Source of the DNA: Escherichia coli
GTDB lineage: Bacteria; Pseudomonadota; Gammaproteobacteria; Enterobacterales; Enterobacteriaceae
DNA: 25,373 nucleotides
NCBI RefSeq assembly: GCF_003334765.1
Contig: NZ_QOWT01000045.1
Strand: one strand, 5' to 3'
Numbering within the stretch: position 1 is the first letter of the stretch; every line of letters begins with the position of its first letter. Below are positions 1,886 to 22,325 of this stretch, one piece after another. The notes under the pieces are model-generated. The model was given only the letters and a program-made list of their open reading frames with translations, was not told the origin of the DNA and ran no database searches. Position numbers and translations under genes: made by a program.

Positions 1886-2134
1886 ATGAAACACCCTTTA
1901 GAAACCTTGACCACCGCAGCAGGCATTTTGCTGATGGCTTTCCTCTCTTGCCTGCTGCTGCCCGCCCCCGCACTGGGGCTGGCGCTGGCACAAAAACTGG
2001 TGACCATGTTCCATCTGATGGATCTTAGTCAGCTTTACACTTTATTGTTTTGTCTGTGGTTTTTAGTGCTGGGCGCTATTGAGTATTTTGTTCTGCGCTT
2101 TATCTGGCGACGCTGGTTCTCGCTGGCGGATTAA
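1886..2134 (+). CDS. ybdJ: Small inner-membrane protein YbdJ, 82 aa, two hydrophobic segments
   Basis: [27 protein letters not shown]...; size and position match YbdJ between ybdK and ybdF. Confidence 0.75.
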
Positions 2135-2198
2135 ACGTCGATTATCGCCGTACTTCGCGGCATACTTTGCTTATTCTCCTTCGCCTAAAGGAACGTTT

Positions 2199-4671: not shown

Positions 4672-4709
4672 AAAAAAACCGCTCTCATCGAATGGATGAG
4701 AGCGGTTTC
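4672..4709. terminator. Bidirectional rho-independent terminator between convergent ybdG and pheP
   Basis: Perfect 11-bp stem CCGCTCTCATC/GATGAGAGCGG (4679..4689 with 4695..4705), 5-nt loop, flanked by A7 on the left and TTTC on the right. The pheP-direction transcript gets a U7 tail. Confidence 0.75.
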
Positions 4710-6227: not shown

Positions 6228-9200
6228 TTATTTCCGTACCCGATGTCGGTGCAGCCACATCAGCTTATACGCCGCCGGGATAATAAACAGCGACAGCAAA
6301 GGTGCGGTGATCATGCCGCCAATCATCGGTGCGGCAATCCGGCTCATCACCTCTGAACCAGCCCCCGTTCCCCACAGAATCGGCAGCAGACCGGCGATAA
6401 TCACCGCCACCGTCATCGCTTTCGGGCGCACGCGCAGTACCGCGCCGTGATACAACGCCTCATCCAGCTTCTGCTCACTGAATGTTTGCGGATTATTCAA
6501 CGACGGCTCGGCCTCTATGGCGTGACGTAAATACATCAGCATCACCACGCCAAATTCGGCGGCGACCCCGGCGAGGGCGATAAAGCCAGTGCCCGTCGCC
6601 ACGGAAAGATGAAAGCCCATCCACCACAGCAACCAGATGCCGCCCACCAGCGCAAACGGTACGCTGCTGATAATCAGCAACGCTTCGCCCACCCGACGGA
6701 ACGCCAGATACAACAGCACGAAGATGATCATCAGCGTCATCGGCACCATGAGTTTCAGCTTATGGTTGGCGCGCTCCAGCAACTCGAACTGCCCGGAAAA
6801 CGCCACGCTGGTGCCTGGTTTTAACTGCACTTTTTCAGCTATCGCTTTTTGCAAATCGTGAACCACCGACACCATGTCACGATCGCGGGCATCGATATAA
6901 ATCCAGCTCGTCGGGCGCGCATTCTCGGTTTTCAGCATCGACGGTCCGGTAGAGACTTTAACGTCGGCCACGTCTGCCAGGGTGATTTGCTGCTTCATCG
7001 GCGTCAGGATCGGCAACTGGCGCAGTGCCTGCGGACTATCGCGCCAGCTTTGCGGATAACGCAGATTAATTGGATAACGGGCAATCCCTTCCACCGTTTC
7101 GCCAACCATCGCCCCGCCCACCGCAGAAGTCACAAACAACTGCACATCCGCCACCGTCATACCGTAACGTGCGGCTTTTTCACGGTTAATCTCAACGTTG
7201 ATATAGCGCCCACCTTCCAGCCGCTCGGCAAGCGCAGAAGCTACGCCTGGCACCGTTCGTGCCACTTCTTCAATTTGCTCCGCCATCGCGTCGATATCCG
7301 CCAGCACAGTGCCGGAAACTTTAATGCCGATGGGGCTTTTAATGCCGGTTGAGAGCATATCGATACGGTTACGAATTGGCGGCACCCACAGATTCGCCAG
7401 CCCCGGCAGACGCACGGTGTTATCCAGTTCCTCAATGATTTTGTCCATCGTCATGCCTGGCCGCCACTGCTCCTGCGGCTTAAGCTGGATGGTCGTTTCT
7501 ACCATCTCCAGCGGAGCAGAATCGGTGGCGGTTTCCGCTTTCCCGGTTTTGCCAAATACCCGCGCCACTTCAGGTACGCTCATAATTAGCTTGTCGGTTT
7601 TTTGCAGCATACTCGCCGCCTCTGCTGCGGAAATCCCCGGCAGCGTCGATGGCATATACAACAAGTCGCCTTCATTGATCTGCGGTAAAAATTCCCCGCC
7701 AACTTTATTGAGCGGCCAGAGAACCGTCAGCACCGAAAGCGCTGCCACCAACAGCGTGGTTTTCGGCCAGTGCAGTACTTTCAGCAATAGAGGATGATAA
7801 ACACGAATCAAAAAGCGATTGAGCGGGTTACTGCTTTCCGGCGGAATTTTGCCACGGATCCAGTAGCCCATCAGGATCGGGATCACTACGATCGCCAGCA
7901 GCGCCGCGCCCGCCATCGCATAGGTTTTAGTGAACGCCAGCGGGCCAAACAGACGCCCTTCCTGCCCTTCCAGGGTGAAGATCGGGATAAACGACAACGT
8001 GATAATCAGCAGACTGATAAACAACGCCGGACCCACTTCAACAGACGCATCGGTGATCACCTGCCAGCGCGTTTTATTATCCAGCGTGGCGTCAGGATGC
8101 TGGTGCTGCCACTCTTCCAGCCGTTTATGCGCATTCTCGATCATGACGATAGCAGCATCGACCATCGCCCCGACGGCAATCGCAATGCCACCCAACGACA
8201 TAATATTGGCATTCAGTCCCTGGAAGTGCATGACAATAAAAGCAATACACAACCCCAGCGGCAACGAAATAATCGCCACCAGCGCCGAGCGCACATGCCA
8301 GAGAAACAGCGCACAGACTACCGCCACCACAATAAACTCTTCCAGCAACTTGCCGCTGAGGTTGTCGATGGCGCGGTCAATGAGCTGGCTGCGATCGTAT
8401 GTTGTAACTATCTCCACGCCTTCCGGCAGACTACTTTTCAGCGTTTCCAGTTTGTCCTTCACGGCGGCGATCACTTCACGGGCGTTTTTGCCGGAGCGCA
8501 GGATCACCACCCCGCCTGCCACTTCGCCTTCGCCGTTCAGTTCGGCAATGCCCCGGCGCATTTCCGGTCCAATCTGGACCTTCGCAACATCACGCAGATA
8601 AACAGGCACGCCATTTTCACTGGCTTTTAAAACGATGTGATTAAAGTCGTCGAGCGTTTGCAGATAGCCGCTGGCGCGCACCATATATTCCGCTTCCGCC
8701 AGTTCGATCGACGAACCGCCCGCTTCCTGGTTTGAAGCATCCAGCGCGCTTTTTACTTCGGCTAGACTGATGCCATACTGTGCCAGGCGCTGAGGATCGA
8801 TAACCACCTGATACTCTTTCACCACACCGCCCACCGACGCTACTTCCGCAACGTCAGGGATGGTTTTTAGCTCATATTTGAGAAACCAGTCCTGCAATGA
8901 GCGTAAATCGGCCAGATCGTGCTTACCGCTGCGATCCACCAGTGCATATTCATAGATCCAGCCAACACCCGTGGCATCTGGCCCCAGCTCGGCGCTGACT
9001 CCCGCAGGCAGCTTACCCTGTACCTGGTTGAGGTATTCCAGCACCCGCGAACGCGCCCAGTACGGATCGGTACCATCTTCGAAAATGACATACACATAAG
9101 AGTCGCCAAACTGCGAGAAACCACGCACAGTCTTCGCGCCAGGCACCGACAACATGGTGGTGGTTAGCGGATAAGTCACCTGATTTTCAACGATTTGCGG

Positions 9201-9371
9201 TGCCTGGCCGGGATAGCTGGTTTTAATAATCACCTGCACATCGGAGAGATCCGGCAGCGCATCCACTGGCGTGTTAATGATGGTCCAGGTGCCCCAGATA
9301 CTCAGAAATAACGCGCCCATCAGCACCAGAAAACGGTTCGCCACCGAGCGACGAATAATCCATTCAATCAT
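6228..9371 (-). CDS. cusA: RND heavy-metal efflux pump inner-membrane subunit CusA, 1047 aa
   Basis: Full-length [49 protein letters not shown]..., recognised as CusA. Confidence 0.95.
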
Positions 9372-9382
9372 TGGTTATTCCC

Positions 9383-10606
9383 TCAATGCGCATGGGTAGC
9401 ACTTTCAGAGCGCATCCGCTCCAGTGCGCCAGAAATATTGGCTTCGGAATCAATCAGGAACAGGCCGCTGGAAACCACCTTTTCACCTTCCGCCAGACCA
9501 GAGCGTAATGCGGTGACACCTTGCGATGCCTGGAAAACGGCAACGCGTTTCGGTACAAAGCGCCCGTCGGCATCAACGGTAATCACCCGCTGTTCGTTGC
9601 CGGTATCAATCAGCGCCTGTGACGGAATGAGCAGCATCGGTTCGCTGGCGGTATTGAGTTGCAACCAGGCGTTCATGCCTGGTTTTAGCGCCTCGTCGGC
9701 GTTGTCGACTTCCAGACGCAGTTGTAGCGTGCGGGTCGCGGCATCCACGCCGGGTAGCAGGGTCCATTTGCGGATGGTGAGTGTTTTATCAGGTCGCGCC
9801 GGAACGGTGAGCGTAAACTGCGAGGCATCTTTCACCAGCCAGGCGATGGACTCCGGGATCGCAGCAGTGACCCACACCGGGTCCATACCCTGAATTTTCG
9901 CGACCACGTTATCTTTGGCGATATTCATTCCCGCGCGCAGATCAAACGCGGTGATCACGCCATCAATGGGCGCTTTGAGCGTAAAGCGAGTCTGGATTTT
10001 TTGCGTGGCGATCAGGCGGCGAATATCCGCCTCCGGCATTCCCGCCAGTCGCAGCCGCTCAAGAATGCCTTCAGTCTGGGTCGCCGTACCGCCGGTTTCG
10101 CGCAGCAGTAAATACTCACTCTGCGCTTCCACCCAGTCGGGAATGGTCAGGTCGAGAAGCGGTGTGCCCTTTTGCACTTTATCGCCCACGGTAAGCGGAT
10201 ACACCTTGTCGATAAACCCGGCAGCGCGAGCCTGCACAATGGCATACTGATACTCGTTGTAACTGACATTCGCCGGGAAACTCTGGGCAAAAGTCAGCGG
10301 CCCGCGCGTGACGGTAGCCGTTTTCACCCCCAGATTCTGCGTCTGAGTCGGGTCAATGCGCACACCAGACGCAGAACTCTCTTCATCGGCATATTTCGGC
10401 ACCAGATCCATATCCATAAACGGCGATTTACCTGGTTTATCGAACCGCGTATTGGGATACATCGGGTCGTACCAGAATAAGACTTTACGTTCTGCGGTCG
10501 ACGTTTTTTCTGCGGGCGGTTCAGCCTTTGCAAACCAGTTAAAACCTGCCGCAGAAATAATACCGCCCGCGATCATGCTGCCGATAATAAGCGCGATTTT
10601 TTTCAT
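9383..10606 (-). CDS. cusB: Membrane-fusion (periplasmic adaptor) protein CusB, 407 aa
   Basis: ORF MKKIALIIGSMIAGGIISAAGFNWFAK..., recognised as CusB; 11-bp spacing to cusA. Confidence 0.95.
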   Translation of the reverse strand: MKKIALIIGSMIAGGIISAAGFNWFAKAEPPAEKTSTAERKVLFWYDPMYPNTRFDKPGKSPFMDMDLVPKYADEESSASGVRIDPTQTQNLGVKTATVTRGPLTFAQSFPANVSYNEYQYAIVQARAAGFIDKVYPLTVGDKVQKGTPLLDLTIPDWVEAQSEYLLLRETGGTATQTEGILERLRLAGMPEADIRRLIATQKIQTRFTLKAPIDGVITAFDLRAGMNIAKDNVVAKIQGMDPVWVTAAIPESIAWLVKDASQFTLTVPARPDKTLTIRKWTLLPGVDAATRTLQLRLEVDNADEALKPGMNAWLQLNTASEPMLLIPSQALIDTGNEQRVITVDADGRFVPKRVAVFQASQGVTALRSGLAEGEKVVSSGLFLIDSEANISGALERMRSESATHAH

Positions 10607-10621
10607 ATCATTAAACCTGGG

Positions 10622-10954
10622 TTACTGGCTGACTTTAATATCCTGTAATAAAGAAAGGTTGCCCTGCTGGACAAAATTAAACGCCACTTTGTCGCCGGTT
10701 TTAATTTCACTCATTTTCGTCTGCGGGGTGATGGTAAAGCGCATGGTCATCTCCGGCCAGTTCACGGCAGCAATCGGATCGTGATGGATGGTGATTTTTT
10801 TGCTTTCCAGATCAACACCTTTTACCACGCCAGTGGCGCTAATAACCTGCGGTTGTACTTCGCTCATGGTTTCATGATGATGTTCGTTAGCCTGGGCATT
10901 AAAGCCAATAACGGTAAACAGACTGAACATTGCGACTTGCAGTGCTTTTTTCAT
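10622..10954 (-). CDS. cusF: Periplasmic Cu(I)/Ag(I) metallochaperone CusF, 110 aa
   Basis: ORF MKKALQVAMFSLFTVIGFNAQANEHHHETMSEVQPQVISATGVVKGVDLESKKITIHHDPIAAVNWPEMTMRF..., recognised as CusF. Confidence 0.95.
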   Translation of the reverse strand: MKKALQVAMFSLFTVIGFNAQANEHHHETMSEVQPQVISATGVVKGVDLESKKITIHHDPIAAVNWPEMTMRFTITPQTKMSEIKTGDKVAFNFVQQGNLSLLQDIKVSQ

Positions 10955-10980: not shown

Positions 10981-12360
10981 CTACTGCCAACCGCCACCAA
11001 GTGCGGTATATAAAGAAATTTCGTTGACCTGACGGGCATAATTCAGGTCAAGTAAGGTTTGTCGGGTTGCAAATAAAGAACGCTCGGCATCCAGCACTTC
11101 CAGATAACTTACCGCGCCGTGCTGATATAATGCCCGCGCCCGTTGCAAAGTAATTTGCAGCGACGCCAGATAACGCTGCTGGGCGCTGATTTGATCGTTC
11201 AGGCTTTGACGTAATGCCAGCGCATCTGCCACTTCTTTAAAGGCGTTCTGGATTTTCTGTTCATAATTCACTACCGACTGCTGCTGGCGAATTTCGGCGA
11301 TATCCAGATTGGCCTGGTTGCGTCCGGCATTAAAAATGGGGATCTCAATTTTGGGTATAAAATTCCACATCCCGCTGCTGGCGTTAAATAATGACGACAG
11401 ATCGCTGCTGGCGGTCGATATTCCGCTGGTCAGGCTGATAGACGGGAAAAATGCCGCACGCGCAGCACCAATATTGGCATTAGCCGCCATTAACGCGTGT
11501 TCAGCTTCCATAATATCCGGGCGCTGCAATAAGATTTGCGACGACAAGCCCGCCGGTAATTTAACGCTTTGCAGACTGTCGCTGTTTACTGTCTGCGCTT
11601 GCGGCAGCTTGCCGTAGCTTCCCAATAACAGTTGCAATGCATTATTCGCCTGCGCCAGTTCCCCCTGACGTTTAGCGATGTCACTGCGGGTACTTTCTAT
11701 CACCCCGCGAGCCTGTTCCAGCGCCAGAACATTGCTGCTACCGGTCAACAGTTGTTTTTCGACAAACGCATATGACTGCTGATAATTACGCAGCGTTTCT
11801 TCGGCTATTTGCAATTGCGCATACGCCAGTTGCTGATTGAAATAGCTTTGCGCGACATTAGAAACCAGCAGAATATGCACCGCGCGCTGAGCTTCCTCAG
11901 TGGCTAAATAATTTTGTCGCTCGGCTTCGCTCATGTTCTTTAAGCGACCGAAAAAATCGAGGTCAAGGCTGGCGTTAAGGCCGGTCGAAAACTCCCGTGT
12001 CGTGGCGGTATTCCCTTTAAGATTACCGCTCCAGCTGCCGCTGCCCTCGCCATTGAGCTGTGGGTAGCGGTCGGCATCAGTCAGACGATATTGCGCCCGT
12101 GCCTCCTGCACTTTCAGCGTCGCCATGCGCAAATCCCGGTTATTCACCAGCGCCTCGCTAATCAGCGTCTTCACCTGATTATCAACAAAAAAGGTGCGCC
12201 AGCCCGCGTTCTGATAGTTATCTGCTGCGTTAACGAGGCCGTTCTGGCTGAGTGAGAACTGCTGCGGTACGGGCATTGCCGGGCGCTGATAATCCGGTGC
12301 CAGTGAACAACCGGTTAGCGCAAGGGCCACACAAAATGGCAGAAGTTTACAAGGAGACAT
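10981..12360 (-). CDS. cusC: Outer-membrane factor lipoprotein CusC (TolC-like channel of CusCBA)
   Basis: ORF MSPCKLLPFCVALALTGCSLAPDYQRP... with lipobox LTGC, recognised as CusC. The exact start codon was not verified. Confidence 0.9.
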   Translation of the reverse strand: MSPCKLLPFCVALALTGCSLAPDYQRPAMPVPQQFSLSQNGLVNAADNYQNAGWRTFFVDNQVKTLISEALVNNRDLRMATLKVQEARAQYRLTDADRYPQLNGEGSGSWSGNLKGNTATTREFSTGLNASLDLDFFGRLKNMSEAERQNYLATEEAQRAVHILLVSNVAQSYFNQQLAYAQLQIAEETLRNYQQSYAFVEKQLLTGSSNVLALEQARGVIESTRSDIAKRQGELAQANNALQLLLGSYGKLPQAQTVNSDSLQSVKLPAGLSSQILLQRPDIMEAEHALMAANANIGAARAAFFPSISLTSGISTASSDLSSLFNASSGMWNFIPKIEIPIFNAGRNQANLDIAEIRQQQSVVNYEQKIQNAFKEVADALALRQSLNDQISAQQRYLASLQITLQRARALYQHGAVSYLEVLDAERSLFATRQTLLDLNYARQVNEISLYTALGGGWQ

Positions 12361-12429
12361 AGGCTCATAATTTCTGGTGATTTTATGCCGCCAACTTTAC
12401 TCGCCAGCCTCTGATTTTCCGGTGACAGG

Positions 12430-12451
12430 AAAATGACAAAATTGTCATTTT
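12430..12451. promoter_or_regulatory. CusR box in the divergent cusC/cusR promoter region
   Basis: Perfect palindrome AAAATGACAA-aa-TTGTCATTTT (10-bp arms) in the 156-bp spacer between divergent cusC and cusR, matching the CusR (OmpR-family) operator as I recall it. Confidence 0.7.
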
Positions 12452-12516
12452 GCCAATAAGCGATTGCCATCTGATCCCGCTACTCTAGAATTGCCCGGGC
12501 AACATGTGGAGGAAAT

Positions 12517-13200
12517 ATGAAACTGCTGATTGTCGAAGATGAAAAGAAAACCGGAGAATACTTGACCAAAGGGTTAACCGAAGCCGGTTTTGTGGTCGAT
12601 TTGGCCGACAACGGGCTGAATGGCTACCATCTGGCGATGACCGGAGATTATGACCTGATAATCCTCGATATTATGCTGCCGGACGTGAACGGCTGGGATA
12701 TCGTGCGCATGTTGCGCTCCGCCAATAAAGGGATGCCGATTCTGTTGCTTACCGCGCTTGGCACCATTGAACATCGCGTCAAGGGGCTGGAGTTGGGGGC
12801 CGATGACTATCTGGTGAAGCCGTTCGCTTTTGCTGAACTGCTGGCGCGGGTGCGCACTCTCCTGCGGCGCGGGGCGGCGGTGATTATCGAAAGTCAGTTT
12901 CAGGTTGCCGATCTGATGGTCGATCTCGTCAGCCGCAAAGTCACCCGCAGCGGCACGCGCATCACTCTGACCAGTAAAGAATTTACTCTGCTGGAGTTTT
13001 TCCTTCGCCATCAGGGCGAAGTGCTGCCCCGCTCGCTTATCGCCTCGCAGGTATGGGACATGAATTTCGACAGCGACACTAACGCCATTGATGTGGCGGT
13101 GAAGCGGCTACGCGGCAAAATCGACAACGACTTTGAGCCGAAGCTGATTCAAACCGTGCGCGGCGTGGGTTACATGCTTGAGGTGCCGGATGGTCAGTAA
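12517..13200 (+). CDS. cusR: Copper-responsive two-component response regulator CusR (OmpR family), 227 aa
   Basis: [70 protein letters not shown]..., receiver plus winged-helix domains. Confidence 0.95.
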
Positions 13201-14632
13201 GCCATTTCAGCGCCCGTTTTCGCTGGCAACCCGCCTGACCTTTTTTATCAGCCTGGCCACCATCACGGCGTTTTTCGCCTTTGCATGGATCATGATCCAC
13301 TCAGTAAAAGTGCATTTTGCCGAGCAGGATATTAATGATTTAAAAGAGATTAGCGCCACCCTTGAACGGGTACTAAATCACCCTGACGAAACGCAAGCCC
13401 GACGCTTAATGACGCTGGAAGATATCGTCAGTGGTTATTCCAATGTGTTGATTTCCCTGGCAGATAGTCAGGGTAAAACGGTGTATCACTCCCCCGGTGC
13501 GCCCGATATCCGCGAGTTTACGCGTGACGCCATACCCGATAAAGACGCGCGGGGCGGCGAGGTGTATCTCCTTTCCGGCCCGACGATTATGATGCCAGGG
13601 CACGGTCACGGGCATATGGAACACAGCAACTGGCGGATGATTAACTTACCGGTTGGCCCGCTGGTTGACGGCAAACCGATTTATACGCTCTACATCGCGC
13701 TTTCGATCGATTTTCATCTTCATTACATAAATGATTTGATGAATAAACTTATTATGACCGCATCGGTAATCAGCATCCTGATCGTCTTTATCGTGCTGTT
13801 GGCGGTACATAAAGGTCACGCGCCGATCCGCAGCGTCAGCCGTCAAATCCAGAATATTACCTCGAAAGATCTCGACGTTCGCCTTGACCCGCAGACCGTG
13901 CCCATTGAGCTGGAACAGCTGGTACTGTCGTTCAACCATATGATCGAGCGTATTGAGGATGTCTTTACCCGCCAGTCCAATTTCTCAGCGGATATCGCTC
14001 ACGAAATTCGCACACCAATTACGAATCTCATAACGCAAACCGAAATCGCCCTCAGCCAGTCGCGCAGCCAGAAGGAGCTGGAAGATGTGCTCTACTCTAA
14101 TCTCGAAGAGCTGACGCGAATGGCGAAAATGGTCAGCGATATGCTGTTTCTCGCTCAGGCCGATAACAACCAGCTAATCCCCGAAAAGAAAATGCTCAAC
14201 CTGGCGGATGAAGTCGGCAAAGTGTTCGATTTTTTCGAGGCGTTAGCGGAAGATCGCGGCGTGGAGTTGCGGTTTGTTGGCGACAAGTGTCAGGTCGCGG
14301 GCGATCCGCTGATGCTGCGTCGGGCGCTAAGCAACCTGCTTTCGAACGCCCTGCGTTATACGCCAACCGGAGAGACAATTGTAGTGCGCTGTCAGACGGT
14401 CGATCACCTGGTGCAAGTTATCGTCGAAAACCCCGGTACGCCCATTGCGCCCGAGCACTTACCGCGATTGTTTGACCGTTTCTATCGCGTTGACCCCTCC
14501 CGCCAGCGAAAAGGTGAAGGTAGCGGTATTGGCCTGGCGATAGTGAAATCGATTGTTGTCGCGCATAAAGGCACGGTTGCGGTAACGTCGGATGCGCGGG
14601 GGACAAGGTTTGTTATCACATTACCCGCTTAA
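13190..14632 (+). CDS. cusS: Copper/silver sensor histidine kinase CusS, 480 aa
   Basis: ATG at 13190 overlaps the cusR stop by 11 nt. [31 protein letters not shown]..., with H-box [10 protein letters not shown] and C-terminal ATPase motifs. Confidence 0.9.
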
Positions 14633-21858: not shown

Positions 21859-21903
21859 TGGCGCGCCCTGCAGGATTCGAACCTGCGGCCCACGACTTAG
21901 AAG
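21859..21903 (-). pseudogene. pauD: Truncated tRNA-Arg(UCU) 3' fragment (pauD-like), the prophage attachment scar of an argU-integrated lambdoid element
   Basis: Minus-strand sense reads CTTCTAAGTCGTGGGCCGCAGGTTCGAATCCTGCAGGGCGCGCCA: anticodon loop with TCT, complete T-arm, acceptor 3' half and CCA, but no D-arm or 5' acceptor half. Identity to argU as I recall it ends at 21903/21904. Confidence 0.8.
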
Positions 21904-22325
21904 TTCCTAGAACGACATTTTAAGTCAACAACTTACCGCGCCATCTCTGCGCTCACACGTCCCACTACCTCAAAACATGTAAAGCCTTGCAAGCCATTGT
22001 GAGGCCTTATGTGTCTCAGTTTTGTCCCTCTTTTTTGTACCAAAAAACATAGCAATTGAGGATAAACCTCATGCTATTTTCGCTTATATGCCTCTAAAGG
22101 CATGGCGCTTAAATAGATAAAAACACCACAAAAGCATAAAAAACCACACAGTAAAACCGCAACATAAAACAATAACAGATAATTAAACCAAAAACAGATA
22201 GCGCATTGTGATAATCATTCAATACTAAACAAAATATAAACAGTGGAGCAATATGTAATTGACTCATTAAGTTAGATATAAAAAATACATATTCAATCAT
22301 TAAAACGATTGAATGGAGAACTTTT

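Follow-up and report, generated by a model that had tools for sequence, protein, structure and literature searches.

The question raised by the cus locus of Escherichia coli is how a single palindrome, placed in the short spacer between the divergent cusCFBA and cusRS operons, can serve two promoters, and whether it serves them symmetrically. A first-pass annotation of the DNA analyzed here (the window, 25,373 bp in length) had proposed a compact autoregulatory design, in which one phosphorylated CusR (CusR-P) dimer on a symmetric site could drive both operons. The palindrome is the already published E. coli CusR box, and its regulation is textbook knowledge with nothing new in it. What the present analysis adds is comparative evidence for a longer, asymmetric operator module, in which a third half-site stands at a fixed distance from the −10 element.

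The cus locus and its control region

The window is the chromosomal cus locus of E. coli. Two regulatory genes lie on the plus strand: cusR (12517-13200), encoding an OmpR/PhoB-family copper/silver response regulator (NF007346 equivalog, 507.9 bits with a cut-off of 420, and annotation), and cusS (13190-14632), encoding a sensor histidine kinase (NF007345, 983 bits, and annotation). The minus strand carries the genes for the outer-membrane channel CusC (10981-12360; NF007347, 902.6 bits), the periplasmic metallochaperone CusF (10622-10954; NF007348), the membrane-fusion adaptor CusB (9383-10606; NF007303) and the RND permease CusA (6228-9371; TIGR00914, 1667 bits). All six Cus proteins (CusR, CusS, CusC, CusF, CusB and CusA) score above the NCBIfam cut-offs, and CusR also falls in the heavy-metal regulator subfamily TIGR01387 (cztR_silR_copR; 323.9 bits, cut-off 279). 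The RefSeq annotation of an identical strain places pheP, cusA, cusB, cusF and cusC on one strand and cusR, cusS, nfrB, nfrA, ybcH and envY on the other. The gene identities and the divergent layout given in the first-pass annotation are therefore confirmed by the open reading frames, the NCBIfam equivalogs and the RefSeq annotation.

The cusC-cusR control region is bounded by the cusC ATG at 12360 (minus strand) and the cusR ATG at 12517 (plus strand). The spacer between the two ATGs measures 156 bp (12361-12516), which is exactly the range that had been claimed, and the RefSeq annotation of 100% identical DNA agrees. A 501-bp stretch around it (12200-12700) is 100% identical in several E. 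coli chromosomes and is matched in 5336 of 5426 complete genomes; the spacer alone is matched in 5334 of these 5426, and most genomes match it at 98.1% identity.

Regarding the edges of the window, its sequence is collinear with that of the reference strain 300709 (99.98% identity) up to 21903, a point within the tRNA-Arg gene of that strain (window 21859-21903); a search of the window with ARAGORN found no tRNA. Positions 21904-25373 contain ompT, an alpha/beta hydrolase gene and prophage remnants (DinI-family and tail-fibre assembly genes). The window seems to run here into a lambdoid prophage integrated at argU, whose attachment site is a partial copy of the tRNA. At the opposite end, positions 1-315 do not align to strain 300709, which has an IS150 copy and a frameshifted ORF there.

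The palindrome is the CusR box

The palindrome AAAATGACAA-aa-TTGTCATTTT (full sequence AAAATGACAAAATTGTCATTTT) occupies positions 12430-12451. As had been claimed for this 22-bp element, it consists of two perfect 10-nt arms around a 2-nt center, and such a structure is far beyond chance. Its core half-sites, TGACA (12434-12438) and TGTCA (12443-12447), are separated by 4 nt, and its dyad at 12440.5 lies 2 bp off the center of the spacer. A scan of the 25,373-bp window with AAAATGACAANNTTGTCATTTT, allowing up to three mismatches, returned the box as the sole match, with 0.01 matches expected from shuffled sequences. Perfect inverted repeats with 10-nt arms and spacers of 0-6 nt occur twice in the window, whereas Markov-simulated windows contain 0.07 on average. 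The second of them, CGCTCTCATC (4680-4704, with a 5-nt spacer), lies between the convergent genes ybdG and pheP and is probably a bidirectional terminator.

The identification of the palindrome as a CusR box, also made in the first pass, is borne out letter for letter by the published CusR box as given in PMC11195947. According to that text, E. coli CusR prefers the palindrome AAAATGACAAnnTTGTCATTTT, located between cusRS and cusC(F)BA (Yamamoto & Ishihama 2005). The same paper reports that pcoE, which is directly controlled by CusR, bears TGACAAnnTTGTCAT, and that a mutation of the corresponding palindrome was examined in P. paraeruginosa. DNase I footprinting of CusR at the cus locus is on record as cited in PMC9725139 S1. 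A ChIP-chip study (bioRxiv 2020.08.17.251918) found one CusR peak, in the cusC-cusR spacer, which agrees with the earlier claim that the CusR box occurs only there. In genomic SELEX (PMC8249747), CusR gave a single peak at the cus spacer and HprR a single high-level peak at the same place; HprR binds the hprRS/hiuH spacer too, more weakly. The two regulators recognize the same sequence, and phosphorylated CusR gains further targets (PMC8249747).

The sequence itself has the features of a copper box, whose consensus is given in PMC12428095 as half-sites of 5-6 bp, of the TGACA or TTACA type, separated by 4 bp. The inverted repeat TGACA-N4-TGTCA, with its 4-bp spacer, is arranged as in the operators of the cztR/silR/copR subfamily, and the adjacent regulator CusR is itself a member of that subfamily (TIGR01387). 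Moreover, the core is kept while the flanks diverge in the sil, Lelliottia, Enterobacter, Denitrificimonas, Providencia, Collimonas and Acinetobacter loci. The best explanation, in which we place very high confidence, is that the palindrome is the CusR box, an operator of CusR that is also recognized by its paralogue HprR.

A third half-site and the cusC promoter

A third half-site, reading TGTCA in the cusC sense (TGACA on the plus strand), is located on the minus strand at 12423-12427; its start and that of the cusC-proximal box arm are 11 bp apart. This arm and the third half-site form a direct repeat with an 11-bp period, within the 10-11 bp characteristic of Pho-box-like sites. A weak fourth phased element of uncertain function, AATCAG (12411-12416, minus strand; AAACAG in sil/pco), follows 11 bp further toward cusC; its CAG is kept in most promoters of the cus/sil/pco type and is absent from hiuH.

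The predicted −10 hexamer of cusC, TAAAGT (12394-12399, minus strand), has the form TAnnnT and lies exactly 23 nt past the third half-site. The transcription start predicted from this −10-like hexamer is near 12387, relative to which the dyad of the box would lie at about −53.5, with the third half-site near −38. At the −35 position, beside the third half-site, is the poor hexamer CCGGAA. Judged from this poor hexamer and from the positions of the third half-site and the dyad, cusC looks strictly activator-dependent. The strong direct-repeat pair ends 23 nt from the −10, and the weak pair made of the third and fourth elements ends 11 nt from it, the fourth being absent in hiuH. The third half-site was also considered as the −35 element of cusC and was rejected, since 23 nt would then separate it from the −10.

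The idea of an extra half-site predates this analysis. The supplement PMC9725139 S1 (2022) presents the K-12 spacer sequence with the same −35 positions labelled and marks the same extra half-site as possible, and the comparison made here strengthens that remark. According to the supplement, the reported site is head-to-head, unlike those of typical OmpR-family regulators, and SELEX indicates a head-to-tail binding of CusR-P.

E. coli O19:H7 strain 730V1 (L006, 1975-2943 and 417-1397) offers a natural disruption of this region, with an IS903B copy lying within the cusC-cusR spacer. Similarity to the window picks up again at about 12408, some 14 bp beyond the third half-site, so that the insertion parts the box from the cusC −10. 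In this strain cusC is also split by ISKpn26; cusRS and the box are intact.

The cusR promoter

On the other side of the box, a promoter scan predicts the cusR −35 hexamer TTGCCA (12464-12469, plus strand), which corresponds to the 'PcusR -35' label in PMC9725139 S1, and the −10 hexamer TAGAAT (12486-12491, plus strand). The pair has 10 of 12 matches, and the inferred start is near 12498. The cusR side thus reads TGTCA, 16 nt, TTGCCA, 16 nt, TAGAAT, and no third half-site was found on this side of the box. TTGnnA at 16 nt past the box half-site is conserved in the cus/sil clade, and the −10 is kept as TAAAAT, TACAAT or TAGAAT in sil, Denitrificimonas, Lelliottia and Enterobacter. The −10 and the near-consensus −35, with the dyad of the box at about −57.5 from the predicted start, fit a basal expression of cusRS. 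An alternative −10, TCTGAT (12470-12475), would bring the box to −41.5; it was rejected because this hexamer is unconserved in sil and related loci, where TTGnnA-N16-TAnAAT is conserved instead.

Conservation of the box and its surroundings

The box and the entire cusR-side promoter are invariant in all seven E. coli spacers that were sampled across the identity range. The positions that vary among the seven, 12408, 12429 and 12507, are all outside the box. The window has C at 12408 and T at 12507, where the six other spacers have G and C, respectively. The gap that separates the box from the third half-site includes 12429, which is G in the window and most samples and A in two of them; K-12, as shown in PMC9725139 S1, has A as well.

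Outside the species, a blastn search (distant mode) of plasmids with the 156-bp spacer matched E. coli records alone, all with the cus spacer at 95-99% identity and several of them chromosome-sized. The sil spacers were missed because they are too diverged outside the box, and they were reached via tblastn with CusR. The silC-silR spacer of pKPN_CZ, otherwise diverged, retains TAATGACAAtgTTGTCATTTTT. A scan of a genome collection with AATGACAANNTTGTCATT gave at least 120 matches. Among the matches listed, most belong to loci without a CusR homologue and are mainly chance or unrelated occurrences, many of them in Collinsella, and six loci from other genera have an adjacent CusR homologue with 58-89% identity.

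Many Collinsella genomes share AATGACAAcgTTGTCATT, followed after 5 bp by the partial repeat AATGACAACGT, with a GGAAGG/CCTTCC hairpin at the flanks, and the site looks orthologous across these genomes. No CusR homologue was found in any of the 15 Collinsella loci inspected (L009, L013, L014, L016, L017, L019, L020, L028, L037, L042, L061, L067, L079, L082 and L087). The Collinsella site is therefore presumably the operator of an unrelated regulator that shares the core by chance.

Eleven promoters were compared in the sense of the induced gene: E. coli cusC; silC, silE and pcoE of pKPN_CZ; hiuH of K-12; and six promoters from other genera (Lelliottia, Enterobacter, Denitrificimonas, Providencia, Collimonas and Acinetobacter). 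All 11, several of which share ancestry within the cus/sil clade and which are thus not 11 independent tests, fit the pattern T[G/T]ACA-N4-TGT[C/A]A-N6-(xGTCA)-N23-TAnnnT. The third half-site, xGTCA or, in hiuH, TGTAA, is at exactly the same offset in each of them. In hiuH the box is of the TTACA/TGTAA variant, and box and third half-site co-vary. The cusC-like module is also present at three independent, unidirectional promoters, namely silE (L008, 18164-18189), pcoE (L134, about 2105-2135, minus strand) and hiuH (L133, 4872-4925). The outer arm is conserved as strongly as the inner arm in every promoter compared, including silE and pcoE.

One box, two promoters

Both PcusC and PcusR are reported to be activated by CusR-P, with positive autoregulation (PMC9725139, PMC12589874, PMC10920338), and PMC9725139 describes a single binding site and an approximately 5-fold induction of PcusR. 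The same papers state that copper-dependent activation of the two promoters requires the box. These reports uphold the part of the first-pass claim that lets one site serve both operons. The other part, a symmetric site for one dimer, fares less well: the conserved third half-site and the unequal promoter geometries argue for asymmetry, and the element may hold more than one dimer. From this comparison of sequences, we infer that the element is functionally asymmetric.

According to the literature, periplasmic Cu(I)/Ag(I) is detected by CusS, which in turn phosphorylates CusR; CusR-P binds the single box and activates both cusCFBA, encoding the efflux pump, and cusRS, in positive autoregulation. 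In the mechanism proposed here, the palindrome would act as a high-affinity anchor for activation in either direction. At cusC, whose promoter looks activator-dependent, an occupied third half-site would place a protomer at the −35 region. Transcription of cusR, from a promoter with good core elements, would run at a basal level that CusR-P raises only modestly. In addition, unphosphorylated CusR also binds the cus spacer, which the authors of PMC8249747 read as repression; given this binding, the on/off logic at the spacer may be more complex than simple activation.

We tentatively propose, with somewhat less than even confidence, that the functional CusR/SilR/HprR operator is a fixed module of three, perhaps four, half-sites, TGACA-N4-TGTCA-N6-xGTCA-N23-(−10), and not the 22-bp palindrome alone. 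If this is true, the palindrome would be an orientation-neutral anchor that allows divergent activation, and the third half-site would recruit one more protomer, or a head-to-tail dimer, to the −35 of whichever gene is strongly induced, so that a symmetric site would give an asymmetric output. The box is a well-studied operator and is routinely used in copper biosensors. A longer module would matter for decoy and biosensor designs that contain the 22-mer only, and for the use of inverted repeats in the OmpR family.

The tandem arrangement of half-sites suggests another division of labor, which is possible, if on the doubtful side. The cusC-proximal arm and the third half-site (TTGTCATTTTCCTGTCAC, cusC sense) would together be the cusC-activating unit, bound head-to-tail as in the OmpR/PhoB type, and the distal arm would serve the activation of cusR, the binding of unphosphorylated CusR or HprR, or the nucleation of cooperative binding. 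The 11-bp period is consistent with such a unit, and the direct repeat resembles the Pho-box consensus CTGTCATAWAWCTGTCAY. In the sites of PhoB and OmpR (Pho box, OmpR F1 and C1), which belong to the family of CusR, 11-bp phased repeats of the TGTCA type stand in for a missing −35. The head-to-tail mode of CusR-P from SELEX (PMC9725139 S1) points in the same direction, as do the activation by AgrR via inverted and in-phase direct repeats (PMC7380067) and the footprints of P. putida CopR, which span several TGACA-like motifs (PMC12428095). However, the two arms are equally conserved everywhere, and the persistence of the outer one in the unidirectional silE and pcoE promoters implies that the palindrome itself is needed even without a divergent gene.

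It is rather unlikely that one head-to-head CusR-P dimer on the palindrome makes up the whole cis-element and activates both promoters equally. The palindrome is indeed perfect and nearly central in the spacer, papers describe one site serving both operons (PMC10920338, PMC11195947, PMC9725139), and the related regulators PcoR, CopR, AgrR and P. paraeruginosa CusR bind inverted repeats (PMC11195947, PMC7380067). This minimal arrangement is at odds, however, with a third half-site that all 11 promoters keep on the target-gene side, at an 11-bp offset and 23 nt from the −10, and with the difference between the poor −35 of cusC and the good −35 of cusR; it also conflicts with the SELEX-indicated head-to-tail binding and the possible extra half-site of PMC9725139 S1.

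An RNA hairpin or intrinsic terminator in place of a protein site has a negligible chance of being correct and was rejected: although the RNA could fold and is followed by UUUU (MFE −11.2 kcal/mol, z = −2.7), a terminator scan of 12250-12620 finds none, the stem is rich in A and T, the element has a gene start on either side, it lies upstream of both predicted transcription starts and is thus probably untranscribed, the half-sites are kept as sequence and not by compensatory change, and direct binding of CusR and HprR is published.

Comparison with known regulatory sites

The identification of the palindrome as the CusR box, and the tentative extension of this box to a three-half-site module, can be placed beside several known systems. 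Compared with the E. coli CusR box of Yamamoto & Ishihama (2005, Mol Microbiol 56:215; AAAATGACAANNTTGTCATTTT), the element shows no difference: sequence, location and organism are the same. The spacer around it departs from the K-12 type at 12408, 12429 and 12507, all of them outside the box.

The copper boxes of the plasmid-borne sil and pco systems share ATGACAAnnTTGTCAT cores (with one mismatch in silE and pcoE), the third half-site and the N23 distance to the −10. Their A/T-rich outer arms are shorter or imperfect, and the promoters of silE and pcoE drive transcription in one direction only. Upstream of pcoA, the PcoR/CopR box has ATTACA/TGTAAT half-sites.

The HprR (YedW) box at hprR-hiuH, CATTACAAAATTGTAATG, has the same N4 inverted repeat, with a third half-site 11 bp toward the target and 23 nt to TAnnnT. 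Its half-sites are TTACA/TGTAA, in contrast to TGACA/TGTCA in the CusR box, and the AAACAG element is absent from the HprR site.

Pho boxes are pure direct repeats that end about 10 bp from the −10, whereas the cus element has an inverted-repeat core and its strong repeats end 23 nt from the −10. The AgrR box of Cupriavidus metallidurans (PMC7380067), the site of another OmpR-family metal regulator, combines a 6-4-6 inverted repeat with an in-phase direct repeat; both repeats contribute to activation, from a class II-like position. AgrR differs from the cus system in its half-site, ATTACA, and in its active form, which is the unphosphorylated protein.
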